From: Candidatus Oscillibacter excrementavium
GTDB taxonomy: Bacteria; Bacillota; Clostridia; Oscillospirales; Oscillospiraceae
Reading direction: 5' to 3'
NCBI GenBank assembly: GCA_019118505.1
Contig: DWYU01000084.1
Span: 11,563 to 75,562, forward strand
Length of the DNA: 64,000 nt
A program made the translations under genes and the position numbers. The notes below the pieces were generated by a model. The model had not been told where the DNA came from, ran no database searches, and saw nothing but the letters and a program-made list of their open reading frames with translations. This document shows, piece by piece, positions 1-18,600 of the stretch. Within the stretch, counting starts at the first letter, position 1. Each line of letters begins with the position of its first letter.

Positions 1-41
1 ACGCCCGTCCTTGACAGAAATGTCAGGGACGGGCGTTTTTT
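1..41 (+). terminator. Intrinsic terminator/attenuator hairpin upstream of trpE (probably the 3' end of a T-box leader that starts outside the window)
   Basis: acgcccgtcc-ttgaca-GAAA-tgtcag-ggacgggcgt stem followed by a T run, 27 nt before the trpE start. T-box control of clostridial trp operons is established, but the T-box itself is not visible here. Confidence 0.75.
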
Positions 42-68
42 GTCCTGTTCCGAAAAGGAGGTTTATCC

Positions 69-1544
69 ATGTACCATCCAACTTTGAAGGAGGCACGCTC
101 TCTGGCAGCCTCCGGTGATTACCGGGAGATCCCGGTAGCCAGGGAACTGCTGTCCGATTTTCTTACTCCGATCCAAGCCCTGCGAATCCTGCGGAATCAG
201 GACAACCACTGCTTCCTGCTGGAGTCCGCCGCTGACAGCGAAGGCTGGGGCCGCTGGTCCTTCCTGGGCTTTGAGCCGGAACTGGAGGTCACTTGCAAGG
301 ATGGCGTGGTTCAACTGCGGAGCGGAGAGCGTATATCTAGTCAAATCCAGCAGCCGGGAGCGGCACTGCGGCAGATCCTGACGGAACACCGCAGCCCCAG
401 AGTGGCCGGGCTGCCGCCCTTTACCGGCGGACTGGTTGGGTATTTTGCCTACGACTACATGAAGTACGCCGAACCCGCCCTCCGGCTCACCGGCCGGGAC
501 GAAGAGAAGTTCAAGGATATGGATTTGATGCTCTTCCGCAGCGTCATCGCCTTTGACAACTTCCGGCAGAAATTGATCCTCATTACCAACGCGGACGCCT
601 CTGATCTGGATGAGACCTACCCCGCCGCCTGTGCGCAGCTGGACCGAATGGCAGAGCTCCTCCGCCACGGGACTCCCGCCCCCCGCAGGCCCGGAAAGCT
701 GACCGCCCCGGTGGAGGCCTTGTTCAGCCGGGAGCGCTACTGCTCCATGGTGGAAAAGGCCAAGCACTACATCCGGGAGGGGGACATCTTCCAGGTGGTG
801 CTGTCCAACCGTCTGGAGGCTGGGTTTGAGGGCTCCTTGCTGGATGTCTACCGGATTCTCCGCACAATGAATCCCTCCCCCTACCTGTTTTACTTCACCA
901 GCGACGACATGGAGCTGGCGGGGGCCTCCCCGGAGACCCTGGTGAAGCTGGAGGACGGGATGCTCCACACCTTCCCTTTGGCGGGCACCCGGCCTCGCGG
1001 AAAGACCCCGGAAGAGGACAAAGCCCTGGAAGCAGAACTGCTTTCCGACGAGAAAGAGTTATCCGAACACAATATGCTGGTGGATCTGGGCCGCAACGAC
1101 ATCGGGAAGATCAGCCGCTTCGGTACGGCGGAAGTGGAGAAATACTTATCGATTGAACGGTTCTCTCATGTGATGCACATCGGCTCCACCGTCCGGGGAG
1201 AACTGCGGGAGGGCCTGGACGCGGTAGATGCTATTGACGCCATCCTCCCGGCAGGAACCCTCTCCGGAGCCCCCAAGTTCCGGGCGGCGGAGATCATCGA
1301 CGAATTGGAGGACAACAAGCGGGGGGTATACGGCGGGGCCATCGGCTATCTGGATTTCACCGGCAACCTGGACACCTGCATCGCCATCCGCCTGGCCTTT
1401 GCCAAGAACGGAAAGGTGTTCATCCGGTCCGGGGCGGGCATCGTGGCCGACTCGGTGCCGGAGAAGGAGTATCAGGAGTGCATCAACAAGGCCCAGGCGG
1501 TGGTCCGGGCCCTGGAGCTGGCCCAGAAGGAGAGAGACCTATGA
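69..1544 (+). CDS. trpE: Anthranilate synthase component I
   Basis: 491 aa with chorismate-binding motifs (GDIFQVVLS, NPSPY, ASPE, EHNMLVDLGRND, LPAGTLSGAPK, YGGAIG); first gene of the trp operon. Confidence 0.95.
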   Translation: MYHPTLKEARSLAASGDYREIPVARELLSDFLTPIQALRILRNQDNHCFLLESAADSEGWGRWSFLGFEPELEVTCKDGVVQLRSGERISSQIQQPGAALRQILTEHRSPRVAGLPPFTGGLVGYFAYDYMKYAEPALRLTGRDEEKFKDMDLMLFRSVIAFDNFRQKLILITNADASDLDETYPAACAQLDRMAELLRHGTPAPRRPGKLTAPVEALFSRERYCSMVEKAKHYIREGDIFQVVLSNRLEAGFEGSLLDVYRILRTMNPSPYLFYFTSDDMELAGASPETLVKLEDGMLHTFPLAGTRPRGKTPEEDKALEAELLSDEKELSEHNMLVDLGRNDIGKISRFGTAEVEKYLSIERFSHVMHIGSTVRGELREGLDAVDAIDAILPAGTLSGAPKFRAAEIIDELEDNKRGVYGGAIGYLDFTGNLDTCIAIRLAFAKNGKVFIRSGAGIVADSVPEKEYQECINKAQAVVRALELAQKERDL

Positions 1545-2107
1545 TCTTGCTCATCGACAACTATGACAGTTTTTCCTACAACCTGTATCAACTGGTGGGG
1601 AGCCTGAACCCGGATATTCAGGTGGTGCGCAACGATGCCGTGACGGTGGAGGACATCCGCCGGATGCACCCCAGCCACCTGATCCTCTCTCCCGGCCCCG
1701 GCCGGCCCGCGGATGCGGGGGTGTGCGAGTCCGCGGCGCGGGAGCTGGCGGGCGAACTCCCCATCCTGGGGGTGTGCCTGGGTCACCAGGCCATCTGCGA
1801 GGCCTTCGGCGGCGTGGTGACCTACGCGAAAGAACTCATGCACGGCAAGCCCTCCCAGGTGAGGCTGGATCTGGATTGTCCCCTGTTCCGGGGCCTGCCC
1901 GAGGCCATCCAGGCGGCCCGTTATCACTCCCTGGCCGCCGCGGAGGACACCCTGCCGGACTGCCTGACCGTCACCGCCCGCACCGGCGACGGGGAGGTCA
2001 TGGCGGTGCAGGTTAAGGACCGCCCGGTGTACGGACTGCAGTTTCACCCGGAGTCCATTCTCACGCCCATGGGCGGTCAAATCTTGAAAAATTTCTTGGA
2101 GGGATAA
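1541..2107 (+). CDS. trpG: Anthranilate synthase component II (glutamine amidotransferase)
   Basis: MILLIDNYDSF, SPGPG, GVCLGHQ, QFHPES; ATGA overlap with trpE. Confidence 0.95.
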   Translation: MILLIDNYDSFSYNLYQLVGSLNPDIQVVRNDAVTVEDIRRMHPSHLILSPGPGRPADAGVCESAARELAGELPILGVCLGHQAICEAFGGVVTYAKELMHGKPSQVRLDLDCPLFRGLPEAIQAARYHSLAAAEDTLPDCLTVTARTGDGEVMAVQVKDRPVYGLQFHPESILTPMGGQILKNFLEG

Positions 2108-2110
2108 GGT

Positions 2111-3145
2111 ATGATCAAGGAAGCCATTGTGAAGATCGTCAACAAGGAGGACCTGACCTACGACGAGGCCTACGCCGTCATGAACGAGATCATGAGCGGC
2201 CAGACGACTCCCACCCAGAACGCCGCGTTCCTGGCGGCCCTCTCCACCAAGAGTGCCCGGGCGGAGACCACCGACGAGATCGCCGGCTGTGCCGCCGCCA
2301 TGCGGGATCACGCCACGAAAGTGGAAACAGGCATGGAGGTCTTTGAGATCGTGGGCACCGGCGGCGACAACGCCCACAGCTTCAATATCTCCACCACCTC
2401 AGGCCTGGTGGCGGCGGCAGGCGGCGTGAAGGTTGCCAAGCACGGCAACCGGGCGGCCTCCTCCCAGTGCGGCACGGCGGACTGCCTGGAGGCCCTGGGA
2501 GTGAACATCCAGCAAAGCCCGGAGCGCTGCGTCCAGCTGCTGCGGGAGGTGGGGATGTGCTTCTTCTTCGCCCAGAAGTACCACACCTCCATGAAGTACG
2601 TGGGGGCCATCCGCAAGGAGCTTGGCTTCCGGACCGTGTTCAATATCCTGGGGCCCCTGACCAATCCGGCCACCCCCTCCATGCAGCTGCTGGGGGTGTA
2701 CGACGAGTACCTGGTGGCCCCCCTGGCCCAGGTGCTCATCAACCTGGGGGTACGCCGCGGCATGGTGGTCTACGGTCAGGACAAGCTGGATGAGATCTCC
2801 ATGTCCGCCCCCACCTCCGTGTGCGAGATCAAGGACGGCTGGTTCAAGGCCTACACCATCGCCCCCGAGGACTTCGGCCTGGAGCGCTGTGCCCGGGAGG
2901 ATCTGCGGGGCGGCACCCCGGCGGAGAACGCGCAGATCACCCTGGCCGTGCTGGGCGGGGAAAAGGGCCACCGGCGGGATGCGGTGCTGATGAACGCGGG
3001 CGCCTCCCTGTACATTGGGGGCAAGGCGGGCACCATGCGGGACGGCATTGCCCTGGCGGCGGAGCTGATCGACTCCGGCAGGGCGCTGGAGACCCTGCGC
3101 AAGCTCATTGCGGTCAGCAACCTCCCGGAGGTGGCGGAAACATGA
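2111..3145 (+). CDS. trpD: Anthranilate phosphoribosyltransferase
   Basis: [30 protein letters not shown] motifs. Confidence 0.95.
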
Positions 3146-3930
3146 CGATCCTAGATCATCTGGCCGCCCATGCCCGGAATCGGGTGGCGGCGGACCAGGC
3201 GGAAAACAGTCTGGACGTGCTGCAGGCCCAATGCCGCGCCCGGGGTCGGGCCCATGGGGCGCGCTTCCGGGGCGCCCTGGAAAAACCGGGTCTCTCCTTC
3301 ATCTACGAGGTGAAGAGAGCCTCCCCCTCCAAGGGGGTCATTGCCGAGAATTTTCCCTATCTGGAGATCGCCCGGGACTATGAACGCGCCGGGGCGGACG
3401 CTATCTCCTGCCTCACCGAGCCCAAGTGGTTTCTGGGCTCCGACCAGATTTTTCGGGAGATTCGCGGGGCAGTGGACACCCCCATGCTCCGCAAGGACTT
3501 CACAGTGGACGCGTACCAGCTCTACCAGGCCCGCCTCCTGGGGGCGGACTGTGTGCTGCTGATCTGCGCCCTGCTGGACACCGGGACGCTGGAGCGGTAT
3601 TTGGGCATCTGCGAGGAACTGGGCCTGTCCGCCCTGGTGGAGGCCCACAACGAAGAGGAGATCGCATCCGCCGTGGCCGCCGGCGCGGAGATCATCGGCG
3701 TGAACAACCGGAATTTGAAGGATTTCTCCGTGAACCTTGACAACGCGGCCCGGCTGCGGGACCAGATCCCCCCAGGGGTGCTGTATGTGGCGGAGAGCGG
3801 CGTCCGCCGCCCAGAGGACGCCGCGGCGGTGAGGGCCATGGGGGCCGACGGCGTGCTCATCGGCGAGGCCCTCATGCGGGCGAAGGACAAGGGCGCCATG
3901 CTGGCGGCCCTGCGGGAGGCGGCATCATGA
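3142..3930 (+). CDS. trpC: Indole-3-glycerol phosphate synthase
   Basis: [33 protein letters not shown]; start taken at the ATG overlapping the trpD stop. Confidence 0.95.
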
Positions 3931-4532
3931 CGAAAATCAAGATCTGCGGGCTGTTCCGGCCCTGTGACATCGACTTTGTCAACGAGGCCCGGCCCGACTG
4001 GTGCGGGTTCATCATCAGCTTTCCCAGGAGCCACCGGAACCAGACGCCGGATCAGGTGCGGGCGCTGCGGGCGCGGCTGGATCCAGCTGTGATCCCGGTG
4101 GGCGTGTTCGTGGACCGGCCGGTGGAGGAGGTGGCCGGGCTGCTGAACGACGGGACCATTGCGGCGGCCCAGCTCCACGGGCACGAGGACGATGCCTATA
4201 TCGCCGCTCTCCGGGCCCTGGCCCCCGGCAAGGCGCTCTGGAAAGCGTTCAAGGTCCGGTCGGAGGCCGATCTGGCGGCGGCTGCCGCCTCCACGACGGA
4301 CCAGATCCTGCTGGACAACGGCTACGGCACGGGCCAGGCCTTTGACTGGTCTCTGGCCGGCGGGGTCAGGCGGCCCTTCCTCCTGGCGGGCGGACTGACG
4401 CCGGAGAATATCCCCGATGCCGTGGCGCGGCTCCACCCCATGGGGCTGGATATCTCCAGCGGCGTCGAGACCGGCAGGCAGAAGGACCGGGCAAAAATTT
4501 TGGCGGCCGTGGCCGCCGCAAGAAAGGAGTGA
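3927..4532 (+). CDS. trpF: Phosphoribosylanthranilate isomerase
   Basis: [33 protein letters not shown]. Confidence 0.95.
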
Positions 4533-4537
4533 GGGCC

Positions 4538-5722
4538 ATGTCCAAGGGACGATTTGGCGTCCACGGCGGGCAGTATATCCCCGAGACGCTGATGAACGCG
4601 ATCATGGAGCTGGAGGAGGCCTACAACCACTATAAGGACGACCCGGAGTTCCAGGCGGAACTCACCGAGCTGTTTAACGAATACGCCGGCCGGCCCTCCC
4701 GGCTCTACTACGCCCGGCGCATGACAGAGGACCTGGGGGGCGCGAAGATATACCTGAAACGGGAGGATCTGAACCACACCGGGGCCCACAAGATCAACAA
4801 CGTGCTGGGCCAGGCCCTGTTGGCAAGGAAGATGGGCAAGAAGCGCCTCATCGCCGAGACGGGCGCAGGCCAGCACGGAGTGGCCACCGCCACCGCGGCG
4901 GCCCTTTTCGGCATGGAGTGCGTGGTGTTCATGGGGGAGGAGGACACCCGTCGCCAGGCCCTGAATGTCTATAAAATGCGGCTGCTGGGGGCCGAGGTGG
5001 TGCCGGTGACCACCGGGACCGCCACCCTGAAGGACGCCTGCTCCGCCGCCTTCCGGGAGTGGACCTCCCGCATTGCGGATACCCACTACTGCCTGGGCTC
5101 CGTCATGGGGCCCCACCCCTTCCCCACCATGGTGCGGGACTTCCAGGCGGTCATCTCCCGGGAGATCATGGCACAGCTCCAGGAGAGGGAGGGAAAACTC
5201 CCGGACGTGGTGATCGCCTGCGTGGGAGGCGGCTCCAACGCCATGGGAGCCTTCTATCACTTCATCAACGATCCCTCCGTGCGGCTCATCGGCTGCGAGG
5301 CGGCCGGCCGGGGCGTGGACACCCCGGACACCGCGGCCACCATTGCCACGGGCAGGCTCGGCATCTTCCACGGCATGAAGTCCTACTTCTGCCAGGACCA
5401 GTACGGCCAGATCGCCCCGGTGTACTCCATCTCCGCCGGGCTGGATTACCCGGGCATTGGCCCGGAGCACGCTTGGCTCCACGACACAGGCCGGGCGGAA
5501 TATGTCCCCGTCACGGACGAGGAGGCGGTGTGCGCTTTTGAGTATCTGAGCCGCACCGAGGGGATCATCCCCGCCATCGAGTCGGCCCACGCGGTGGCCT
5601 ACGCCATGAAGCTGGCCCCCGCCATGGGCCGGGAGCAGATCATCGTCGTCAATATCTCTGGCCGTGGGGACAAGGACTGTGTCTCCGTCGCCCGGTATCG
5701 AGGGGAGGAGCTTTCCGAATGA
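4538..5722 (+). CDS. trpB: Tryptophan synthase beta chain
   Basis: GRFGx[19 protein letters not shown] (PLP Lys), [19 protein letters not shown]. Confidence 0.97.
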
Positions 5723-6498
5723 GCCGAATTGCAGAGGCCTTTGCCCATGGCAAGGCGTTTATTCCCTTTCTCACCTGCGCTGACCCGGACCTGGAGACCA
5801 CCGAGGCGGCCGTCCGGGCCATGGCCCAGGCGGGAGCCGACCTCATTGAGCTGGGCATCCCCTTCTCAGACCCCACCGCCGAGGGGCCGGTCATCCAGGC
5901 CGCCAACGAACGGGCGCTGGCCGGCGGCGTGACCACGGATCAGATCTTCGACATGGTCCGCCGCCTGCGGACGGAGCTCACCGTTCCCATGGTGTTCATG
6001 ACCTATGCCAACGTGGTGTTCTCCTACGGCACGGAGCGGTTTATCTCCACGGCGGCGGACATCGGGATGGACGGGCTCATTCTCCCCGACGTGCCCTATG
6101 AGGAGAAGGAGGAATTCGCTCCCACCTGCCGCAGGTATGGCCTGGATCTCATCTCCCTCATTGCCCCCACCTCCGAGGACCGGATCGCGATGATTGCCCG
6201 GGAGGCGGAGGGGTTCCTCTATTGCGTCTCCTCTCTGGGCGTCACCGGCGTGCGGACGGAGATCACCACCGACGTGGGCCGCATGGTCCATCTGGCCAAG
6301 GCGGCCAATCCGGAGATCCCCTGCGCCATCGGATTCGGCATCTCTACGCCGGAACAGGCCGCTGCCATGGCCCAGGTGTCCGACGGGGCCATTGTGGGTT
6401 CCGCCATCGTGAAGCTGTTCGCAAAGTATGGCCGGGAGGCAGTCCCCCATGTGGCAGAATACGTTCGTAATATGAAGAAAGCCGTCGTGAGCTCGTAG
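5719..6498 (+). CDS. trpA: Tryptophan synthase alpha chain
   Basis: [31 protein letters not shown]. Confidence 0.97.
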
Positions 6499-6620
6499 CA
6501 TTTTCAGGCGGCTGTCCGATGCGTCGACTTTCGCCGAAGAGGCCGCAGCGTCCATCTGTTTTCAAATTTTTGGTAGAAATATATACTTTGTCAGAGAATA
6601 TCCGACCACTGGATCGACGC

Positions 6621-6649
6621 TTGACAGTGCCGGAAGGAAGCAATAAAAT
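6621..6649 (+). promoter_or_regulatory. SigmaA-type promoter
   Basis: TTGACA-17 nt-TAAAAT, about 90 nt before the DSD1-family gene. Confidence 0.7.
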
Positions 6650-6740
6650 AAAAACCATTCTTTTAGAAGGTCCGGTACAGAGGCGTCAAGGACTTGCCGC
6701 CCGCACTATACACCGATGGAACCGAAAGGAGAATCAAGCC

Positions 6741-7850
6741 ATGCGAATTGAGGAACTGGATACCCCCGCGCTTCTGATTGACCGGGAGATTTTGGAGTCG
6801 AATCTTCAGTGGATGCAGGATTATGCCAATCGAAACCATGTGGCGCTGCGGCCGCATACGAAAACCCACAAAATGCCCGCCATCGCGCGGCGCCAGATGG
6901 ACCTGGGCGCCTGCGGCATCGCTGTGGCCAAGGTGGGCGAGGCTGAAGTGATGGCGGAACAGGGGCTGCGGGATATTCTGATCGCAAATGAGATCGTGGG
7001 GCAGAGGAAGCTCCAGCGGATCGCGGCGCTGCGCAGAGCTGGCTGCACGGTCTCCTTTGGGGTGGACGCCCCCTGTCAGGTGGAGGAGGCAGAGGCGGTC
7101 TTTGCGGCGGCCAATGTCCAAATTCCGGTTCTAATCGAGATCGAGGTGGGGGAGAATCGCTCCGGCATCATTGAGGAATGTGATTTTCTGGCGCTGCTGG
7201 ACGCCATCCGTGCCTGTCCCCACGTGCTGTTCGGCGGGATTTTCTCCCACGACGGAAACAGCTATTCCGCTCCGGATCTGGACGCCTGCCGGGAGATCGC
7301 CCGGACCGCCCAGCGCAGGACGCTGGCATTTGCGGATCTGGCTGCGGCCCATGGTATGCCCTGCGGCACCGTGAGCTACGGCGCCACCCCCACTCTGATG
7401 AACGGTGTGGAAATCCTGGACGGCATCACCGAGCTCCGCCCCGGCACCTATGCCCTGATGGATGCCTCCCAGGGCCATGCCATCGGCACATTGGACCGCT
7501 GCGCGGCCACCGTGCTGGCCACTGTCATCAGCAAGCCCACCTCCCGGCGGACGATTCTGGACGTGGGCGCCAAGGGCCTGACCATGCAGGAGCGGACAGA
7601 GGGCATCTGCGCCACCCCCGGCAAGGGGACCATCCTGGAATACCCAGACACCCACATCGACGAGATGTACGACGAACACGCCATTTTGTACCATCAGGCA
7701 TTTCACGACTCCGTTCGGATCGGCGATAAGGTCCGGGTCATTCCCGTCCACATCTGCCCGGTGTGTAATCTCTACGACACGGCCTATCTGGTTTCCGGCG
7801 GCGAGGTGGTGGAGGAGATCCCCGTCCTGGCACGGGGACGGCAGCAATGA
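6741..7850 (+). CDS. DSD1/D-threonine-aldolase-family PLP-dependent enzyme (alanine racemase fold)
   Basis: LDTPALLID, LRPHTKTHK (PLP Lys), VAKxGEAE, ELRPGTY, DEH, PVHICP; RBS aaagga before the ATG at 6741. Confidence 0.85.
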   Translation: MRIEELDTPALLIDREILESNLQWMQDYANRNHVALRPHTKTHKMPAIARRQMDLGACGIAVAKVGEAEVMAEQGLRDILIANEIVGQRKLQRIAALRRAGCTVSFGVDAPCQVEEAEAVFAAANVQIPVLIEIEVGENRSGIIEECDFLALLDAIRACPHVLFGGIFSHDGNSYSAPDLDACREIARTAQRRTLAFADLAAAHGMPCGTVSYGATPTLMNGVEILDGITELRPGTYALMDASQGHAIGTLDRCAATVLATVISKPTSRRTILDVGAKGLTMQERTEGICATPGKGTILEYPDTHIDEMYDEHAILYHQAFHDSVRIGDKVRVIPVHICPVCNLYDTAYLVSGGEVVEEIPVLARGRQQ

Positions 7851-7869
7851 CAGGGAGGAGACAGTCTGC

Positions 7870-8676
7870 ATGGAAAAGAAAACTGTGGCGCTGATGGGAT
7901 GCGGCGCTCTGGGGAGCATCCTTGCGGAAGGAGTGCAGCGGCGGCTGGGGGATGCCTATACCCTGGCGGGGGTCCTGTGCAGCACGCCGGCGCGCAGCCG
8001 GGCCGCAGGGGATCGCTTTTCCTGCAAGGGCTATCAAAGTCTGGAGGAACTGTTGGCAGAGCGGCCGGACTATGTGGCAGAGGCGGCCACAGGCGAGGCG
8101 GTGCGCGCCTGCGGCAGTGCGATCCTGCGGGGCGGGAGCGACCTCATTCTGCTGTCTGCCGGCGCACTGGCGGATGAGACGCTGCGGGGCGATCTGGAGG
8201 CGGCTGCCCGGGCGGGCGGCGCCCATCTCTGGATTGCGTCCGGAGCCATTGGCGGATTCGACCTGATGCGCACCATGGCCCTGATGGGGCCGACCGACAT
8301 CTGCGTGGACAGCGTGAAAGCGCCTGCGTCTCTGGAGGGGGCGCCCTTCCTGAAGGGACGGCGGCTGGGAGATGCCCCCTGCCGCATTTTCGACGGCACA
8401 GTGGAGGAGGCGATTGCCGGCTTCCCCAAGAATGTGAATGTGGCGGTGGCCGCGGCGCTGGCCGCTGCCGGCGTGGAGCAGGCCCGGGCGAGAATCGACA
8501 GTCAGCCCGGCCTGACGGAAAATATCCACCGGATTGCGCTGCACAACACGTCCGTTTCGGCCTCCTTGGAGATCGCCTCCCGCCCGGACCCGGAGAATCC
8601 CCGCTCCAGCAGTCTGGCAGCCTGGAGCGTGCTGGCCCTGCTGCGGGAGCTGGCATCGCCCCTTCGGTTTTTCTGA
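7870..8676 (+). CDS. Aspartate-dehydrogenase-like (NadX/DUF108 family) NAD(P)-binding protein
   Basis: GCGALG Rossmann motif, VAEAAT, LLSAGAL, SGAIGGFD, FPKNVNVA, NIH, SxLAAWS. Confidence 0.85.
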   Translation: MEKKTVALMGCGALGSILAEGVQRRLGDAYTLAGVLCSTPARSRAAGDRFSCKGYQSLEELLAERPDYVAEAATGEAVRACGSAILRGGSDLILLSAGALADETLRGDLEAAARAGGAHLWIASGAIGGFDLMRTMALMGPTDICVDSVKAPASLEGAPFLKGRRLGDAPCRIFDGTVEEAIAGFPKNVNVAVAAALAAAGVEQARARIDSQPGLTENIHRIALHNTSVSASLEIASRPDPENPRSSSLAAWSVLALLRELASPLRFF

Positions 8677-8765
8677 ACCGGCGAAGTCCGCAGGACCGCC
8701 TCTGGAGACCTAAAATTCAGATACTTTGATAGACTTGACTGGGTAAACTCTTGTTTTTCTGTTCC

Positions 8766-8877
8766 GGTTTACCATTGATTTCTTCAGGCGGCAGCGCTAT
8801 AATCGATCCTATATTCAGCGAGGCAATGGCGTTTCGTTTCCCTGCGGGGGCGCGCCGCTGCTTCGCGTTTTTCTTTT
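8766..8877 (+). promoter_or_regulatory. Promoter + leader attenuator module, copy A
   Basis: GGTTTACC box, TTGATT(8775)-17-TATAAT(8798), then a hexaloop hairpin (8818-8837) overlapping a terminator ending in a T run; near-duplicate of 9754-9860. Confidence 0.75.
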
Positions 8878-8919
8878 CAGAGGGAGCCCTCAGCTTGTTT
8901 GGAGAAGGACTGGTACGCG

Positions 8920-9687
8920 GTGGAACTCTCTCTGACGACTTACCTGATTCTGCTGCCGGTGATCTTTCTGGCCGGCGTTGTGGATGCGGTCTGTGGAGGC
9001 GGCGGCCTCCTCACCATACCGGCGTATCTGCTGACAGGGTTTTCGGCCCACGTGGCCACAGGCACCAACCTGGCAGCCACCATCTGCGGCGGCGTGGCGG
9101 CACTGTGCCGCTTTGCCCGGGGCGGAAAAGTGCACTGGCCGGCCATGGTGTCCGCCGGACCCACAGCGGCCGTGGGAGCCCTGCTGGGCGCGCGATTCAA
9201 TCTGTTCCTTCCGGACAGGAGCCTTCAGATCATTCTCCTGATCCTGCTGCCGGTGGTGGCGGTCACGGTCTTTATGAAGCGGGAACTGGGCCTGGAGGAC
9301 CTGATGGACACCCTCTCAAGCCGCCAGATCCGGCGGAATTCCGCCCTGATCGGCCTGGCGGTGGGCGCCTACAACGGATTTTACGGCGCGGGAGCCGGGA
9401 CCTTTTTCATCATCGCCTTCACGCTTTTTGACCGCATGGATCTGGTCCGCGCCTCCGGCAGTACCAAGTTCTGCAGCCTGTGCGCCGTGTTGGTGGCCAC
9501 ACTGACATACACCCTCTCCGGAACGGTGGTGTGGCCCATGGTTCTGGCCGGGTCCGTGTTCAGTGTGGCAGGCAATCTGCTGGGCAGCGAGCTGGCCCTG
9601 CGCAATGGCGCCAAGGTCATTCGGCCCATGTTTATCGGGGTGCTGGCGCTGCTCTTCCTGCGGCTGTGTGCCGGTGTGTTTCTCTGA
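8920..9687 (+). CDS. TSUP (TauE/SafE sulfite exporter family) membrane transporter
   Basis: AGVVDAVCGGGGLLTIP and YNGFYGAGAGTF motifs, multiple TM helices; GTG start inferred from the RBS. Confidence 0.85.
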   Translation: MELSLTTYLILLPVIFLAGVVDAVCGGGGLLTIPAYLLTGFSAHVATGTNLAATICGGVAALCRFARGGKVHWPAMVSAGPTAAVGALLGARFNLFLPDRSLQIILLILLPVVAVTVFMKRELGLEDLMDTLSSRQIRRNSALIGLAVGAYNGFYGAGAGTFFIIAFTLFDRMDLVRASGSTKFCSLCAVLVATLTYTLSGTVVWPMVLAGSVFSVAGNLLGSELALRNGAKVIRPMFIGVLALLFLRLCAGVFL

Positions 9688-9753
9688 GAGAGTTGGACAA
9701 CATCGATAAATTTTACATAATTTTTAGTTGGATTTGACCATTTTTTCTGGTTC

Positions 9754-9860
9754 GGTTTACCATTGATTTCCGAACCTGCCAGGCTTATAATGTGCCACAT
9801 ATTTAGCGAAGCAACGGCGTTTCGCCTCCTGTTTGGGAGCGCGCCGCTGCTTCGCTTTTT
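9754..9860 (+). promoter_or_regulatory. Promoter + leader attenuator module, copy B
   Basis: GGTTTACC, TTGATT(9763)-17-TATAAT(9786), GCGAAGC-AACGGC-GTTTCGC hairpin competing with the terminator AGCGAAGCA...TGCTTCGCT-TTTT. Confidence 0.75.
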
Positions 9861-9919
9861 ATATTTTCCTACAGGTACCAGCGTCATATGTGCACAATTT
9901 TTTTGAGGAGGATGAAGAA

Positions 9920-10885
9920 ATGAAAAAGCGTACTTGGAAGAGACTGGCCTGCCTAAGTTGCTCCCTGGCCATGGTTCTTTCCCTGTTTGGGTGCAGCGGC
10001 AGTGCTGAGACGGAGGAGCCCTCCGCCACTGATGATACCCCCACCGCGGAGGGAAGCAGCGGTGAAAAGACGGCCCTGCAGGAGAAGTGGTCCTCCCTGG
10101 AGGGGACCCATCTGACCGTCGGCACCTCCTGCGTGCAGACCGGCTGGTCCCAGGACGACGGCTCCGGCAACCCCGAGGGCATGGACATCGACGTCATGCA
10201 GTACATCTGCGACTACTACGGCTGGGACCTGGAGTGGTACGTGGCAGAGTACGCCGCCCTGTGGGGCTGTGTGCAGAACGGCCTGATCGACACCATCGCC
10301 AACCTGACCACGGTGAACCCCGAGCGGCTGGATCAGTACTGGTTCACCAATACCTACGCATGGGAGTCCTACTCCATCGTCTCCCGGGCTGAGGACGCGC
10401 CGGAGGACGGCGACATGAACTACTGGGAGGGCCGGACCATCTGCGGCGAGGCCGGCTCCAACGCCACCATGACCTTTGAGACCATCCGGGACCAGCTGGC
10501 AGCTGAGGGTGTGGAGGTCAACGAGCTGGTGCTGGACTCTGCCTCCATCCTGATCCCCAGCGTCATCCAGAATCAGGCGGACGGCGCGTTCATGTGCACC
10601 TCCACCTGTGCCTACATCGTGGAGCAGCAGGGGTACACGGATCAGACCCATATCCAGAATGTGGAGTGGCAGAATATGCCCATCGTCTACGGGTTCACCC
10701 GGACAGAGGAGAACAAGGACATCATCCTGGCCATCAATGATCTGCTGGATGAGATGCATGAGGACGGCACGCTGGCTGAGCTGTCCAACAAGTGGTTCGG
10801 CATGGATGTGACGGCACTGCCGGAGGGCGAGGTCAACTACGTCACCACCACCGGCGAGGACGCCTGGCAGAGCTATGAGGGCTGA
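9920..10885 (+). CDS. Polar amino-acid ABC transporter substrate-binding lipoprotein (family 3)
   Basis: Lipobox LFGC, GMDIDV, ID-IAN-T---ER, GTLAELSNKWFG. Confidence 0.85.
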   Translation: MKKRTWKRLACLSCSLAMVLSLFGCSGSAETEEPSATDDTPTAEGSSGEKTALQEKWSSLEGTHLTVGTSCVQTGWSQDDGSGNPEGMDIDVMQYICDYYGWDLEWYVAEYAALWGCVQNGLIDTIANLTTVNPERLDQYWFTNTYAWESYSIVSRAEDAPEDGDMNYWEGRTICGEAGSNATMTFETIRDQLAAEGVEVNELVLDSASILIPSVIQNQADGAFMCTSTCAYIVEQQGYTDQTHIQNVEWQNMPIVYGFTRTEENKDIILAINDLLDEMHEDGTLAELSNKWFGMDVTALPEGEVNYVTTTGEDAWQSYEG

Positions 10886-10907
10886 TTGCTCATAACCGGA
10901 ATCTCTT

Positions 10908-10945
10908 CTCCAACAGCGTTTGCCCTCTGGCAAACGCTGTTGGAG
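10908..10945 (+). other. Perfect 17-bp stem-loop between the SBP and permease genes
   Basis: ctccaacagcgtttgcc-ctct-ggcaaacgctgttggag, with a second hairpin (tttcggga...ttcccgaaa) right after it. Confidence 0.7.
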
Positions 10946-10995
10946 GTTTCGGGACACGGATTCCCGAAAGCCCAAAACAGAAAGGTAGGATCTGA

Positions 10996-11664
10996 ATGTA
11001 TCACTTCAGTACAGAGGCATTTGGGGAAGCCCTGCGGACCATTGCCGGAGCGGTGCACATCACGTTGGGACTGACCTTCGGTTCCTTTATTCTGGCGTTT
11101 GTGCTGGCCATCTTCATGGCAATGCTCTCTCTTTCCAAAAACCGCGTGATCCAGTGGATTCTGCGGGTGTGGATCTCCCTGTTCCGGGGGACGCCGCTGC
11201 TGGCGCAGCTGTTCTTCTTTGTGTACGGCCTGTTTCCTCTGATCCCAGGCCTCAAGGACATGGCCCTTTTGCCCAAGGGCATCCTGTGTCTGGCCCTGGC
11301 GTTTTCCGCCTTTATGTCCGAGACCATTCGCGGCGCCATCCAGTCCGTGGACAAGGGGCAGATGGAGGCCTGCCTCTCCTGCGGCATGACCACCGGCCAG
11401 GCGTACCGGCGCGTGGTGCTGCCCCAGGCGTTCCACTTGGCTGTCCCCTCTCTGATGAACAACTTTATTGAGTGCTTCAAGGGCACGGCCCTGGTGTCCA
11501 TGGTGGGCGTCACGGATATGATGCTGACGGCCAAGATGCTGACGGCACGGAACCTCCGCTTTGTGGAGGGCTATCTGGCGGTCCTGCTTCTGTACTGGGT
11601 CATCAACATGGTGTTCGTGGCCATCCAAAAGCGGCTGGAACTCCGGCTGGACGCCAAATATTGA
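10996..11664 (+). CDS. Amino-acid ABC transporter permease (HisM/TcyB-like)
   Basis: [31 protein letters not shown] (EAA loop), VVLPQA. Confidence 0.9.
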
Positions 11665-11677
11665 GGAGGGAACTGCC

Positions 11678-12418
11678 ATGATTCGATATGACAATATCCA
11701 CAAGGTCTTTGGGGACCTGGAGGTGCTCAAGGGCATCAGCTTTGAGATCGGGACCGGCGAGGTGGTGTGCATTCTCGGCCCCTCCGGCTCCGGCAAGACC
11801 ACGCTGCTGCGGTGCACGAACTTTTTGGAGATCCCCACCCGGGGCAAGGTGACCATCGCGGACCTGACGGTAGATGCGGAGCACTTCACGAAGGAGCAGG
11901 TGAATCAGCTCCGGCGGCACAGCACCATGGTTTTTCAGAACTACAACCTGTTCCGGAACATGACCGCCCTGGAGAACGTCATGGAGTGCCTGGTGACCGT
12001 CCAGAAAAAGCCCAAGGCAGAGGCCAGGGAGATCGCGGAGCACTTCCTGAATCAGGTGGGCATGGGGCAGCGGATGGACTACTATCCCAGCCAGCTCTCC
12101 GGCGGCCAGCAGCAGCGGGTGGGCATCGCCCGGGGCCTGGCGCTGAACCCCCACGCCATTTTGTTCGACGAGCCCACGGCTGCCCTGGACCCGGAGCTGG
12201 TGGGCGAGGTGCTGAACACCATGAAGGAGGTGGCCAAATCCGGCATCACCATGGCGGTGGTCACCCACGAGATGGGCTTTGCCCGGGATGTGGCGGACCG
12301 CGTGGTGTTTATGGACGGCGGCGTGGTGGTGGAACAGGGCAAGCCGGAAGAGGTGTTCGACCATCCCCAGAATGAGCGGACCCGGCAGTTCCTGCGGGCC
12401 GTGACCACCAGAGGCTGA
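11678..12418 (+). CDS. Amino-acid ABC transporter ATPase (GlnQ-like)
   Basis: [37 protein letters not shown]. Confidence 0.92.
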
Positions 12419-12432
12419 GCGGAGGGATCGTG

Positions 12433-13698
12433 ATGGAACGTGATTATTTGACATTGGCCCAGGCGGAACAGGCGTACACGGTCAAACTCCGCCGCTATTT
12501 CCACCAGCATCCGGAAGTGGGACCTGCGGAGCAGGTGGAGACCATGGCTGCCATCTGCCGGGAGCTGGAGACGCTGGAAATCCCCTATGAGCGGGTTCCC
12601 GGCGGCGGGATTCTGGGATTTCTGGGAGACCCCGCCCGGGGAAAGACCGTCCTCCTGCGGGCGGACATTGACGCCCTGCCCATTCAGGAGGACCCCGACA
12701 ATCTGAAGGGGCCCCGGGTCTGCATCTCCCAAAAGCCGGGAGTCATGCACGCCTGCGGACATGATGGGCATATCGCCATGCTGCTCACCGAGGCCAAAAT
12801 CCTCAAGTCCATGGAGTCAGAGCTGAAGGGCGCTGTCCTGCTGGCCTTTGAGGAGGGGGAGGAGGGCCATCGGAACATCGAAGCACTTCTCCCCTATATG
12901 GAGCGGCGGGGCCTGCGGCCGGATACCTGCTACGCCACCCATGTGCGCTGGGATCTGGAAGCGGGGAAACTCCATGTCGTGGACGGCACCGCCATGGCGG
13001 GCCTGTATGTGTTCCGCTGTGAGCTCCACGGCCTCTCCGGCCACGGCTCCCGGCCGGATCTGGCCCGCAGCACCCTGGACTGCTTTGTCAACGTCTATGA
13101 CCTGCTCCAGACGGTCCGCATGGATCACCTGAGCCCGGACAAACGGCTGACGTTCTCCGTCGGAAAGGTCACCTGCGGCACGGCGGACAATGTGATTCCA
13201 GATCAGCTGGTGTTTGAGGGCACCATCCGATTTTTCGAGCGGGACAGCGGCAGAATCTTCTGGGAGGAGTTCAAGCGCATCCTCAAGACCATCTGCGAAT
13301 ACCACGGCTGCACCTATACGCTTACCTGCCGGTTCGCCCTGCTGCCCAGCATCAGCGACCGGACCTGCCGGCGGCTGTGGGAGCGGGCGATAGAGCGGCA
13401 CCTGGGCAAGGAGCACCTGGGGGAGTGCGAACCCTGGATGGCCTCGGAGTCCTACAGCTACTTTTTGAGTATGTGCCCCGGCGTTCTGGTGTTCACCGGC
13501 ATCCGCAACGAGGCACTGGGCTCTGGCGCCAATCACCACACGCCCCAATTTGACCTGGATGAGGCGGCGCTGCCGGTTGGAGTGGCCAGCGCGGTGGCCT
13601 ACACCCTGGACTTTCTGGAGGAGCAGCCGCAGATCCCGGGCTTCCAGCCCCTCTGCAGCAGCGCGGAGGAGATCATTCGCCTCAACCATCCAAATTGA
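12433..13698 (+). CDS. M20D family amidohydrolase
   Basis: [40 protein letters not shown]. Confidence 0.88.
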
Positions 13699-13722
13699 TC
13701 CTGTTGACGGAGGTGCAGAACT

Positions 13723-14352
13723 TTGGACAACTATGTCATTACCCTTGGCCGGCAGTTCGGCAGTCTGGGCAGGGCCATCGCCCATGAGACGGCGGACCTG
13801 CTGTCGATCCAGTATTACGACCGGGACATCGTGGAGGAAGTGGCCAAACGGATGAAACAGCCGGTCAAGGTGATCAGCCAGGTGGAAGAGGAGGCCAAGA
13901 GCCGCTTCGGCGTCTTTGGCAAGATGCTCTTTCCCTTGGGAGACGGCACCCGGGAGCTGCAGGACCGGACCTTTTTCGTCCAGGAGTGTGTCCTGCGGGA
14001 CTTTGCGGACCGTGGCCCCTGCATTCTGGTGGGCCGCTGCGCCGACTATGTGATGCAGGGCCGGGAGAATCTCCTGCGGGTGTTTATCTACGCCCCCAAG
14101 GAGGCCCGGATTCGGAACTGTGTGGAACAGCTGCACATGGACCGGGAACAGGCCTATAAGATGTGCGCGGATGTGGATCGGGCCAGGGCGCGCTACCATG
14201 AGCGGTACGCCGGGTACCCGGTGATGGATCCTGAGCACTTCGACGTAATGATGAACAGCGATTTGCTGGGGGTGTCTGGAACGGCCGCCGCTCTTGCGGA
14301 TTTGGCGCGGAGAAAATTTCATCTGCCGGATCCATCCGCCAAGGAGCTGTGA
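13723..14352 (+). CDS. Cytidylate-kinase-like family protein
   Basis: ITLGRQFGSLG, YYDRDI, VGRCADY, VFIYAP, DxARARY; TTG start after ggagg. Confidence 0.8.
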   Translation: MDNYVITLGRQFGSLGRAIAHETADLLSIQYYDRDIVEEVAKRMKQPVKVISQVEEEAKSRFGVFGKMLFPLGDGTRELQDRTFFVQECVLRDFADRGPCILVGRCADYVMQGRENLLRVFIYAPKEARIRNCVEQLHMDREQAYKMCADVDRARARYHERYAGYPVMDPEHFDVMMNSDLLGVSGTAAALADLARRKFHLPDPSAKEL

Positions 14353-14384
14353 TGTTCCGCTTCAGACAGCCAGATGCAGTGTCG

Positions 14385-14539
14385 GTGAATTTCGGCCACC
14401 TTGTGGAAAACGGCCTCCACTGCTTTTATTTCCATGGGCCCCGGCCGGGCGGAAGATGGACCTCATCCGGGAGACCGGCCGGGCCTGCATTGCGATGGAA
14501 GCGGGGTGTCAACTGCGGACAGCGGAGCAGGCGTGTGGA
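14385..14539 (+). pseudogene. Fragment of a pyridoxamine-5'-phosphate-oxidase/NimA-family gene
   Basis: VNFGHLVENGLHCFYFHG in one frame joins APAGRKMDLIRETGRACIAMEAG..ACG in the next (one G missing near 14437); resembles the NFG...FYFHG...GRK.D.I family pattern; both ends lost. Confidence 0.55.
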
Positions 14540-14554
14540 CTGCCGCCACCTTTC

Positions 14555-15079
14555 TTACAAAACGAGCTCGTAGAGCCTGAATTGCATGGGAGCGCCAATA
14601 TCCGCATAGGTAATTTCTACGGTATCCACATATTGAAAGCCAAAAGACTGGTACACCTTTACCGGAATGTCGTTTCCCACAATGCAGTCCAGGCGGATCG
14701 CCTTCTGGCTCCAGTTTTTGGCGGTCCGGATCGCGTGTTCCACAAGCTGCTTTGAAAACCCGCGGCCCCCATAGTCCGGCAGAACCCGCAGGGCGTGGAG
14801 AATCACAACTTCGTCAGGCGCCGCATCAATCTGCCATCGGACCGTGTGGTAGGCGTCGTCACAATCATGGTTCATGATATAGGCGGCCACGATCTTTCCG
14901 CCTTCTATCCCAATAAACTGCGTTCCGCTGGCAATCGCACCTTTTACCATATCGGGCGAGGGAAAGCCCCCCTGATCCCCGTTGGGCAGGAAATCCTTTT
15001 CCGCCAGGACACGGCACATCAAGTCGTAAAAGGACAGGATTTCCGCAAAATGATCCATCGTGGCTTGTTCCAGCTTCAT
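14555..15079 (-). CDS. GNAT family N-acetyltransferase
   Basis: LRVLPDYGGRGFS acetyl-CoA motif, IRLDC, VYQSFGF. Confidence 0.85.
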   Translation of the reverse strand: MKLEQATMDHFAEILSFYDLMCRVLAEKDFLPNGDQGGFPSPDMVKGAIASGTQFIGIEGGKIVAAYIMNHDCDDAYHTVRWQIDAAPDEVVILHALRVLPDYGGRGFSKQLVEHAIRTAKNWSQKAIRLDCIVGNDIPVKVYQSFGFQYVDTVEITYADIGAPMQFRLYELVL

Positions 15080-15680
15080 CTTGACACCACCTCATATCCC
15101 GAACGTATTTGTGTATCTCAAATTTACCACAGAACCATGAGAATTTCCACCTTTTCAATATGCGGGCGCTTGGCCGGACCACCGGCAGCCAGAGCCTGAG
15201 AGATGGATGAAAGGGGCCCGTGTGCGGGGACAAAGAAGCGGAGAATCCTGTGAAAATCAATGCTCCCTTTCAAGGGAATCGGAAGAACGGCGTGGGGCAT
15301 GTTGTCCCACGCCGTTTGATTTTGCGGCAGGGTTCCCGCTGCGCTGCGCCGTGAGACCCGACAAAATGGGGAAACGGTTCCGGCACATGTCCGCGGAAGT
15401 GCTGCATAGCAAAAATTTTGACCATTTCGGAGGCGAACGAGCTCCGCCGTATCAACCTTCCGGGAAAAACCGTTGGCAAAATCGGCGAACCATTAAAGTT
15501 GCAAATGCTATTGTGCTTTGGCGGCATCTGGGGCGCCTGTGAACGGAATGGGGTTGGAACATCCGGCCGGGACGCGGTCCGCGGAATCCGGCGGAGCATG
15601 GGGATAAGATCGCCTGTTTGATGGCTCCGAACATCAAATGGGGATTGTTTTGCGTTAAGGTGTTTGGTATGGGAAGAGCG

Positions 15681-18600
15681 ATGTGGAAAAATCGACATGG
15701 GTTCACGCTGGTGGAAATGCTGGCCGTCGTAGCAGTTCTGGTGATTTTGCTGGCGGTGTCTGCGGTGGGGGTCGTCAGGTATCTCCGGCAGACCCGGATT
15801 ACGGAGCTGGACAACGCCGCCCGGGAGATCTATCTGGCGGCCTAAAATCGCGCCATCCTGCTGCAGGGCAGCCAGCGTCTGGAAGGGCTGGTGGTCCAGG
15901 CGGGGAATCGGATCGAGCACGTGGATGTCATTCCGGGGGCAGAGGCCAGCGAGGAGGGGACCACCCAGATCACTGTCTATTACTGCCACAGTCAGGACGC
16001 CGCCATGGAGGACCTGCTGCCCCGGGAGACCATCGAACCCTCCCTGTGGGAGGGGGACTTCTACATCGTCTACGAGCCGGAGAGTGCCAGCGTGGTGGAT
16101 TGTTCTTCTCCCGGGAGACCCTGCCGGTAGGCGGCGATTTTGAGGACTTCTATCAGCAGTGGCGGGCGGCGCCCAGGACCAAGCGGATGGACCAGGACCC
16201 CATGATCGGGTACTTCGGCGGCCAATCCGCTGAGAGCGGCACCTCCATCTCCCTGCGCACCCCGGTCATCAACATCTACAATGAGAACACCCTGTGGGCG
16301 GAGGTCACCTACTGGGTGCCCAATACGATGGCCCTGACAGGTGAAGAGAAAAACGTGCACCTGAATGTGATCCTGACCTATCAAGACGTTCCCGTCACGC
16401 TGGAACCCGAGCAGGCCGAAAACGGCGGCGCCGTGGAGGACGAGGGGATCGTCTATCGGTCCTACACCTATGCCTGGACGCTGGACTCCCTGGAGGACGG
16501 CGCGCAGTTCCGGGATCTCTTTGAAAACGCTGACAATGCGAACACGGACGATCTGACCTTTGGCGGCGACTTTGAACTCACCGCCGAGGTGTCCTATGAA
16601 GGCGGCTCCCTGGTGGTCAACGGCGCCCGCAAGACGGCCTCGGACAACAGCCTCTTTGCCAGAGGCAGCGGGAAAGAGACCGCATACATCGCCTGCCTGC
16701 GGCACCTGCAGAACCTGGACGCCGCATTCTCCGGCGCGGCAGGGAAGACCGCAGCGGAGCAGACCGCTGACATTCCCGCTGTGGAGGGCTATGTGTTCCG
16801 GCCCATCGACAACAACCAGCTCCGGTCCTATGACGGCGGCCGGTATACCATCCGGGACCTGGAGATCGGGACGGACCATGAGAATGCGGGCTTGTTCGGC
16901 GCTTTCGAGGGGACCAAGGGGGTTCGAAATACCCTGACGGGCATCCGTCTGGTGAACACCTCTGTCCGCCAGGAGAATGCGGAGGCCTCCGGTGCCCTGG
17001 CCGGCACGGCCTCCCATGTAAATATCTCGGACTGCCTCGTGTACTGGGAGAACAACGCCGACGAGACCGCCAGCCTCCGGGAGGTGCTGGGGGACAGCGC
17101 CAGCAGCCTGCGCTACCAGATCATCTCCGGTACCGGCTTTGCCGGCGGCCTGGCGGGGAAGCTGTCGGATGCGCAGGTGTCTGACTCCGCTGCCGCCACC
17201 CTGGTCAGCGGCAAAACTGCCGGCGGCCTGGCAGGCCGGGCGGAGAATGTCACCGTCTCCGGTTCTTACGCGGACTGCTATCTGACCGGAGACGCCGCTG
17301 CGGGCCTGTTCGGAAACCTGAATGAGACGGCAACGATCTCCAACAGTTATGCCGCCGGATTTATCGCGTCGGAGGATGGGGATACCGCTGCCGGCCTGTG
17401 CCTGGGCGGCGGAAACGCCACCGTCAGGTGCTCCTACAGTGCCATGCTGTTCTCCAAGGGGAGCGACAACTACCCGCTGTGCGAGGCTGCGGGCAGCGTC
17501 TACGACCAAACCTACTATCTGGACTCTGACCGGTTTGCGGACGATCCTAAAATTGACGGCAGAGCCCTGACCTACGCCCAGCTGACCAATACGGCGCTGT
17601 GGGACAACTTCTTTGGGGGCGCCTTCACCCGGAAGAGCGCGGCGGACTCCCACCCCTATAACCTGCAGACCACGCTGACCCTGACCCGGTACATCTACCC
17701 CGGCCTGCCGGGGCTGACCCACTACGGCGACTGGGGCGCCCAGTTTCAAAACGGGGATCTGGTGTACTACGAGAAATACGCGGACGGGTCTTATGGCTTC
17801 AGCGGCGGCGGTGTGAACCACCTGCAGAATGACCGAACGGTGATTCTGGACGGCTACGCCGTGGCCTATAACGACACGGATTTCAGCGCGTCTCTGGGCG
17901 TTGCGCTGGACATGACGTATCCCACGGAAACCGGCGGCGAGACCACGAAAGGGATTCACTACTCATACGGCAACGGGAATATGTATACCATCACCGGCAC
18001 GAATCCCCTGACCGACCGGGAGGAGACCTACTACCTGCTGCCCCTGCCGGCGGAGATCGTCAACACGGGATACGCCTCCGAGGACTTCTATCAGACCATC
18101 ACCGTTGCTGAGACGGTGGGAGAGAGCCGGACCTATTACTATAACCCCCATTTTGCCAACGTCCCCCTCTCCTACGAGGAGGACCTGGACCTGAGCCAGC
18201 AGGCCGACCATCTCCCGGTGAGTGTGCGCACCCCCCGGCACCTGTACATGCTCAGCCGGTTCGAGACCTATTTCGCCAGCGAACACCAGTATCGCTTCCA
18301 GCAGGAGCTGGCGCTGGACTATACTGCCTACATCGGGTATGACGATGACATTTTTACCGGAAAACTGGTTTCCCAATCCCCCATCGGCGTGGACGGGGAC
18401 GCGCCCTTCCGCTGCACTTACGACGGCGGCGGGCTCGCCATCACCGGCGTCGTGCCTGCTGACAGCGGCAAATCGGACTATGTGGGCCTCTTCGGGTACA
18501 GCTCCGGCGTCATCCGGGATGTGGTCTACCGCATGGAGGATGCGCCCCTCACCCTGACCCGGTCCGGCAGCGACACCACCGTCTACGTGGGCGCCCTGCT

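Follow-up and report, generated by a model that had tools for sequence, protein, structure and literature searches.

Positions 6741-14352 of the stretch analysed here, a window of 64,000 nucleotides on contig DWYU01000084.1 of Candidatus Oscillibacter excrementavium (assembly GCA_019118505.1), raise the question of why a pyridoxal phosphate (PLP) enzyme of the DSD1 family and an L-aspartate dehydrogenase (AspDH) should be encoded next to genes for the uptake and deacylation of an amino-acid conjugate. In this chicken-gut Clostridia genome, a rare gene island places a dehydratase-type DSD1 enzyme and AspDH beside an uptake-and-deacylation module. No fewer than seven separate lineages and three gene architectures bring DSD1 and AspDH together, and this recurrent pairing is suggestive of a route, not described before, that would turn a hydroxylated aspartate-like amino acid into L-aspartate. 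The reading preferred here, to which we assign a probability of roughly 0.4, is that two conserved modules lying side by side act on one aspartate-like amino-acid conjugate, feeding the dehydratase and then AspDH. Such pathway logic is of a known kind and is assembled from known families.

An alignment of AspDH homologues was scanned against metagenomes, yielding 80 loci whose open reading frames were called and clustered and the clusters named by Pfam and NCBIfam (a scan of genome contigs with a single protein as query gave only 12 loci). When the count is restricted to the 52 AspDH metagenome loci flanked by no less than 5 kb, at least 10 contain a DSD1 orthologue (at least 55% identity), one of them from the window's own species; the pairing is also seen in other assemblies. 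The AspDHs linked to DSD1 can be divided into seven or more groups, with identities under 60% from one group to another. In the first architecture, shared by the window and locus L132 (DSD1 82% identical), DSD1 is followed by AspDH; in the second, DSD1 and AspDH are adjacent and divergently transcribed, as on L019 and L020, both contigs of Gram-negative type. The third is a gene set whose order takes three forms and which comprises RidA, DSD1, a Nit-type amidase, a DUF3100 membrane protein, a 154-amino-acid protein, M20, a regulator resembling YheO, and AspDH; it was found on nine metagenome contigs (L040, L041, L046, L047, L051, L055, L062, L078, and L079), several of which are labelled human gut. 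M20 amidohydrolase is a family that also recurs with the DSD1-AspDH pair; DUF3100 was not mentioned in the literature searched. The DSD1 orthogroup is rare in the family to which the host belongs, a homologue being found in 7 of 151 genomes, the best of these 49% identical; AspDH was found in 2 of 401 genomes in a class-level sampling.

Partners of the dehydratase in the wider set of loci point in a similar direction. YheO-like regulators, Nit-type amidases, RidA, and threonine-synthase-like (ThrC-like) PLP enzymes are the commonest neighbours of DSD1 orthologues, and in L131 (8001-11693) a DSD1 gene (75% identical) is followed by a YheO-like regulator, a 193-amino-acid Nit-type amidase, and a protein of the OCD/mu-crystallin family, to which the iminosuccinate reductase BhcD belongs; AspDH was not called in this locus. 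Judged by these family assignments, a protein predicted to hydrolyse or reduce imines is often encoded near the dehydratase, which fits imine capture. The suggestion of the first-pass annotation that a dehydrogenase captures the imine is accordingly plausible, dehydratase partners in the examined loci including AspDH, an OCD/mu-crystallin reductase, or RidA. The L131 operon adjoins recombinase and IS21 genes. At another place in the window, 35346-37177, tblastn gave two weak matches next to each other, one to the ThrC-like PLP enzyme (31%) and one to the M20 amidohydrolase of the gut operons (26%).

In the window itself the genes form a co-directional cluster, as had been annotated, with eight genes on the plus strand whose calls and coordinates are right. 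The features are:

6621-6649, plus strand: promoter-like site (TTGACA-17-TAAAAT) ahead of the DSD1-AspDH pair.
6741-7850, plus strand: DSD1-family fold-type III PLP enzyme, 369 amino acids (Ala_racemase_N and D-ser_dehydrat; Pfam 86 and 73 bits).
7870-8676, plus strand: L-aspartate dehydrogenase family protein (AspDH), 268 amino acids (Asp_DH_C and NAD_binding_3; Pfam 89 and 52 bits).
8766-8877, plus strand: leader copy A, ahead of the TSUP gene, with a promoter at 8775-8803 and a hairpin plus U-run at 8818-8866.
8899-9687, plus strand: TSUP (TauE/SafE) membrane protein, 262 amino acids (PF01925, 148 bits, residues 19-256).
9754-9860, plus strand: leader copy B, ahead of the ATP-binding cassette (ABC) operon, with a promoter at 9763-9791 and a hairpin plus U-run at 9805-9856.
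9917-10885, plus strand: family-3 solute-binding lipoprotein (SBP_bac_3; SBP) of a polar-amino-acid ABC importer.
10996-11664, plus strand: ABC permease, its top NCBIfam match a cystine permease, under the cut-off.
11678-12418, plus strand: ABC ATPase, its top NCBIfam match TcyN, under the cut-off.
12430-13698, plus strand: M20 amidohydrolase of N-acyl amino acids, ILR1/YxeP type (226.8 bits for TIGR01891, whose cut-off is 153.75).
13723-14352, plus strand: cytidylate-kinase-like protein (Cytidylate_kin2, PF13189; CK2).

These genes constitute at least three transcription units and not one operon: DSD1 and AspDH, separated by 19 nt and lying behind their own promoter-like site; TSUP alone; and the genes from SBP to CK2. 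The island is preceded by a complete trpEGDCFBA operon (69-6498), and near-identical DNA is present in chicken-gut metagenomes of several studies.

By its active-site features, the DSD1 protein of the window can be classed as a metal-dependent enzyme of the dehydratase type. D-threonine aldolase has the metal ligands His347 and Asp349 and the proposed base His193, whereas the zinc-dependent dehydratase has His and Cys as metal ligands and lacks a base of the His193 type (PMC4401734). In the window protein the PLP lysine is K41, aligned with Lys59 of AxDTA, the metal site reads P-V-H-I-C-P (H337/C339), and the residue equivalent to His193 is Ser; in the orthogroup, the PLP lysine and P-V-H-[IV]-C-P are kept in 121 of 121 members, and the His193-equivalent is Gly, Ser, Glu, or Arg. 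The assignment is made because the His/Cys metal pair is present and the His193-type base absent. An earlier alternative, that the enzyme is a plain D-threonine aldolase, is rejected for want of both the H-x-D metal site and that base. Also rejected is the 3-hydroxy-D-aspartate aldolase BhcC (NF045642), against which the protein scores 193 bits with an equivalog cut-off of 690, the metal site being H-C-D in BhcC and H-I-C here. In whole-sequence similarity, the closest solved structure is the D-threonine aldolase 4V15 (E 2e-53), followed by 3-hydroxyaspartate aldolase, D-threo-3-hydroxyaspartate dehydratase, and D-serine dehydratase, the dehydratases at E 1e-30 to 1e-34. The orthogroup is strongly conserved over several phyla, with 67-82% identity among members from Lachnospiraceae, Desulfovibrionaceae, Anaerovibrio, Desulfosporosinus, Clostridiaceae, and a spirochaete. 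Dehydratases of the DSD1 family have known substrates that include D-Ser, D-threo- and L-erythro-3-hydroxyaspartate, and L-erythro-beta-hydroxyasparagine, the last of which is abundant in human urine (PMC8071972).

The AspDH of the window appears to be an ordinary enzyme outside its usual pathway. Its catalytic His220 and FPKNVNVA motif are invariant and all motifs of solved AspDHs are kept, and it scores under the NCBIfam equivalog cut-offs (172 bits against 206.55 for TIGR03855). It is the only Asp_DH_C gene of the genome, and the earlier observation that neither nadA nor nadC is adjacent was confirmed. Neither NadA (PF02445) nor NadB (TIGR00551) has a match anywhere in the host assembly (2.53 Mb in 184 contigs, 98.45% complete), which makes it very unlikely that AspDH serves the synthesis of nicotinamide adenine dinucleotide (NAD). 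True nadX contexts, with NadA, NadC, NiaR, and AspDH, were seen in L038, L080, and L104. A quick maximum-likelihood tree does not gather the DSD1-linked AspDHs into a single clade; they are interleaved with nadX genes linked to nadA, nadC, and niaR, in one position within a well-supported clade shared with nadA-linked genes. Only four positions separate the DSD1-linked from the NAD-linked AspDHs, one of them in the FPKN-x-NVA motif at a residue that also varies among solved AspDHs. Since the motifs are invariant and the DSD1-linked copies are scattered in the tree, the simplest reading of the alignments would be that normal AspDH chemistry (aspartate to iminosuccinate and back) has been recruited repeatedly. 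AspDH also has a recurrent context without DSD1, in which it lies with a SufS-like class-V PLP enzyme and a symporter of the sodium:dicarboxylate family (L042, L043, L050, L083, and L085). Of these loci, L083 additionally has RidA and a YheO-like regulator, and L085 has RidA and an amino-acid ABC system. The M20 proteins near AspDH in L105 and L115 (25-30% identical to the window M20) and the partial one at the end of L085 (no match) were set aside as unrelated family members.

The second module is conserved separately. Relatives of the window M20 (57-68% identity) sit in a fixed module in L122/L123, L124, and L125/L126, in the order TSUP, class-I aspartate-aminotransferase-like (AspAT-like) aminotransferase, SBP, permease, ATPase, M20, and CK2, with CK2 as the constant last gene in these other lineages. 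In L122 a DSD1 gene 67% identical to that of the window follows CK2, and in L125 (4524-4875) and L126 (638-989) the region immediately upstream of TSUP contains, on the other strand, a DSD1 fragment (residues 166-283, 44% identity) with the appearance of a decayed gene; two further lineages thus join the module to DSD1, either as a gene or as a remnant. What the first-pass annotation had treated as one catabolic island is thus conserved in a different form: its genes do recur together, but as two modules (DSD1 with AspDH, and TSUP-ABC-M20-CK2) and not as one fixed island. The window module lacks the transaminase and has AspDH directly upstream of TSUP instead, and judging from gene order a swap of two enzymes that interconvert aspartate and oxaloacetate is possible; the AspAT-like transaminase itself scores under every equivalog cut-off. 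The closest solved structures to the window M20 are ILL2 and YxeP (1YSJ, E 2e-40), and comparison of the SBP with the Protein Data Bank returned generic polar-amino-acid binders, which are uninformative on its ligand.

TSUP and the transporter operon share a regulatory element. The 222-nt gap before TSUP and the 229-nt gap before SBP are copies of one element, 75-79% identical and present in only two copies genome-wide by BLAST, each consisting of a promoter (TTGATT-17 nt-TATAAT), then a hairpin about 50 nt long and a U-run, with folding energies of -29 and -33 kcal/mol. The promoter of the DSD1-AspDH pair differs from this duplicated one. A search of window positions 1-16000 against Rfam with E values up to 1 gave no match, including none to an S-box, a T-box, or another sulfur-related RNA, and the leader for this reason belongs to no RNA family described so far. 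Three other lineages (L122:2700-2800, L124:7300-7400, and L125:7270-7380) likewise have its core motif GAAGCAACGGCG, with a hairpin and U-run after it, in front of the SBP gene. The sole ANTAR-domain protein of the genome (179 amino acids) is encoded between glnA, for glutamine synthetase, and gltB, for the glutamate synthase large subunit (L127, G000:C23:19547-22696), which hints that it may be a candidate nitrogen-responsive antiterminator for the shared leader. When the leader was checked for ANTAR-type antitermination, both copies showed the terminator hairpin, and a possible 7-bp hairpin with the loop AACGGC was seen; a second hexaloop hairpin was not established.

Short contigs from four gut metatranscriptome libraries (two studies) match the island with zero to six differences and cover pieces of DSD1, AspDH, the leaders, TSUP, SBP, M20, and CK2, and so touch all three units. 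These contigs show neither strand nor transcript ends and may include DNA carry-over, and they are a weak indication that all three units are expressed. High depth at 11940-12216 in the RNA libraries was discounted as a conserved ABC motif of other organisms.

Taken together, the two modules can be arranged into a sequence of steps. Module 2 (8899-14352) would take up an N-acyl or peptide-bound amino acid through the ABC importer and deacylate it with M20, and in module 1 (6741-8676) DSD1 would then dehydrate the beta-hydroxy group of a substrate of the (3R)-3-hydroxyaspartate type (D-threo or L-erythro), giving an enamine/imine, 2-iminosuccinate. AspDH would reduce this with NAD(P)H to L-aspartate, instead of its being hydrolysed to oxaloacetate and ammonia. 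Here we infer the substrate, the direction in which AspDH works, the link between the M20 product and the dehydratase substrate, and any role of TSUP. Among known DSD1-family substrates, only the hydroxyaspartates yield 2-iminosuccinate, the natural reductive substrate of AspDH, and by this analogy (3R)-3-hydroxyaspartate or hydroxyasparagine would be the best guess. In relatives with a Nit-type amidase the substrate may be hydroxyasparagine, and a hydroxyasparagine route via 2-oxosuccinamate would suit such an amidase. The literature searched held nothing linking aspartate dehydrogenase to hydroxyaspartate or iminosuccinate. A wider, tentative proposal is that the DSD1 dehydratase and AspDH jointly convert (3R)-3-hydroxyaspartate or hydroxyasparagine into L-aspartate by a nitrogen-conserving route that has not been described before and would be widespread in gut anaerobes; we hold this wider claim to be less likely than not.

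Several observations weigh against a single pathway of this kind. The choice of hydroxyaspartate rests on analogy, TSUP is left without a role where water is the leaving group, and the leader common to the other two units is missing from the DSD1-AspDH unit, which is served by a separate promoter. Most DSD1 orthologues have no AspDH nearby, and 7 of 12 non-redundant loci with a DSD1 of at least 60% identity (L013, L015, L016, L024, and L026-L028) have YheO, Nit amidase, RidA, or the ThrC-like PLP enzyme instead. The OCD protein of L131 scores equally against archaeal alanine dehydrogenase and BhcD, and so fits a route from D-serine to iminopyruvate equally well. RidA and AspDH, where they occur in the same gut operons, would compete for one imine. 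Lastly, the M20 proteins of the window and of the gut operons are distant, falling into separate clusters; the single window hit of the gut-operon M20, at another site, has 26% identity.

The strongest competitor, which we consider unlikely though by no means negligible, is that the two enzymes catalyse separate steps, DSD1 being a D-Ser/D-Thr dehydratase for detoxification or use and AspDH oxidising L-aspartate that M20 releases from an imported N-acyl-aspartate or aspartyl conjugate, in place of an ancestral AspAT-like transaminase. Such a replacement would account for the class-I transaminase in the modules of other lineages and its absence from the window, and the division of labour is consistent with the association of AspDH with a dicarboxylate/amino-acid symporter and a class-V PLP enzyme in loci without DSD1, with the resemblance of the L131 OCD protein to alanine dehydrogenase, and with the frequency beside DSD1 orthologues of RidA, the usual partner of serine/threonine dehydratases. 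However, DSD1 and AspDH are direct neighbours in L019 and L020, both of which are entirely without the ABC/M20 module, and several separate branches of the AspDH tree have joined DSD1 clusters, which is hard to explain without a shared metabolite.

Less probable is a sulfur analogue as substrate: a conjugate of cysteate or cysteine sulfinate would be imported and deacylated, sulfite would be freed by the PLP enzyme, by AspDH (in relatives, the AspAT-like enzyme), or by both, and TSUP would export it. Sulfur-starvation operons of Bacillus subtilis offer a precedent, since they unite a cystine-type ABC system with an M20 hydrolase and a TSUP. Enzymes acting on aspartate accept cysteine sulfinate, TSUP matches the TauE/SafE family and is a co-transcribed neighbour of the transaminase in L122 and L124-L126, the permease and ATPase both match cystine ABC components best in NCBIfam (although under the cut-offs), and the DSD1-AspDH pair occurs in L019 and L020, whose gene content points to a probable Desulfovibrionaceae origin. 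Against this, no known DSD1-family enzyme eliminates sulfite, the Rfam search revealed no sulfur-related RNA, and the one ANTAR regulator, if it acts on the leader, would convey a nitrogen signal. Assignment to the TauE/SafE family says little about the substrate of TSUP, and for the role first given to this protein, export of the leaving group, as for the export of sulfite, no support was found; a hydroxy-amino-acid substrate would release water.

We regard as quite improbable an accidental adjacency, in which two unrelated accessory cassettes landed together downstream of the trp operon. The differing promoters would suit it, as would the existence of the module without intact DSD1 or AspDH in L124-L126 and of the pair without the module in L019 and L020. 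A second contig, L039, also bears on the point: it carries the island at 99.3% identity and diverges from the window after 14554, so that its right flank is different. The DSD1 gene after CK2 in L122 and the remnant flanking TSUP in L125 and L126 count against it, as does the presence of an M20 and a transporter with the pair in the gut operons. That AspDH is a plain nadX of de novo NAD synthesis is close to excluded, for although it is 42-49% identical to AspDHs linked to nadA and nadC and keeps all catalytic motifs, NadA and NadB have no match in the genome and nadC is not adjacent.

The break on the right flank of L039 fits the island being an accessory element. Beyond the point corresponding to window position 14554, L039 (7966-9077) runs into an AspAT-like gene and not the pilus locus, a synteny break at the strain level. 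A genome of the same genus (G098) was of no use for synteny, having no TrpA match at E 1e-20 and a closest M20 of just 39% identity; the lack of TrpA there implies that the trp operon beside the island may also vary within the genus.

If the proposed route from a hydroxyaspartate-type substrate to L-aspartate is true, it would mirror the steps of BhcB and BhcD with unrelated folds, and AspDH would for the first time have a defined physiological role other than in NAD synthesis. Many AspDHs lie outside NAD clusters, and a recurrent, independently assembled tie to a dehydratase family that makes iminosuccinate offers a concrete hypothesis for them. The comparison also defines three uncharacterised gene sets that are widely spread in gut anaerobes: the DSD1 orthogroup with YheO, Nit amidase, RidA, and the ThrC-like enzyme; a DUF3100-M20 variant of the DSD1-YheO-Nit-RidA set; and the TSUP-transaminase-ABC-M20-CK2 module. 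Amino acids that carry hydroxyl or acyl groups, whether they come from the host, the diet, or other microbes, may be what these sets process.

Among known systems, the closest in proposed logic is the BhcB/BhcD segment of the beta-hydroxyaspartate cycle, in which a PLP dehydratase forms iminosuccinate from 3-hydroxyaspartate and an NAD(P)H-dependent reductase converts it to L-aspartate, with nitrogen kept. The components differ: the island dehydratase is of fold-type III, in the DSD1 family to which the aldolase BhcC also belongs, whereas BhcB is an unrelated fold-type II enzyme, and the reductase is AspDH, whereas BhcD is an OCD/mu-crystallin protein of unrelated fold. The hosts are anaerobic gut bacteria in which no glyoxylate-assimilation genes are present. 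The D-threo-3-hydroxyaspartate dehydratase of Delftia sp. HT23, chicken DSD, and yeast Dsd1p belong to the same family as the window DSD1 and have the His/Cys metal site beside PLP (PMC8071972, PMC4401734), but the window protein is nearer in sequence to D-threonine aldolase and forms its own tight orthogroup. The NadX proteins of Thermotoga maritima and Archaeoglobus fulgidus share the domains, catalytic His, and conserved motifs of the window AspDH, which unlike them is not beside nadA/nadC and falls under the equivalog cut-off. In Bacillus subtilis, the ytmI and yxe operons, which serve sulfur scavenging in starvation, combine a cystine-type ABC system, an M20 deacetylase, and a TSUP protein, and the island has the same combination of a polar-amino-acid ABC system, a YxeP-type M20, and TSUP. 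It differs from them in having no acetyltransferase or monooxygenase genes, while its module includes an AspAT-like transaminase or AspDH together with a cytidylate-kinase-like gene, and is regulated through a leader terminator.

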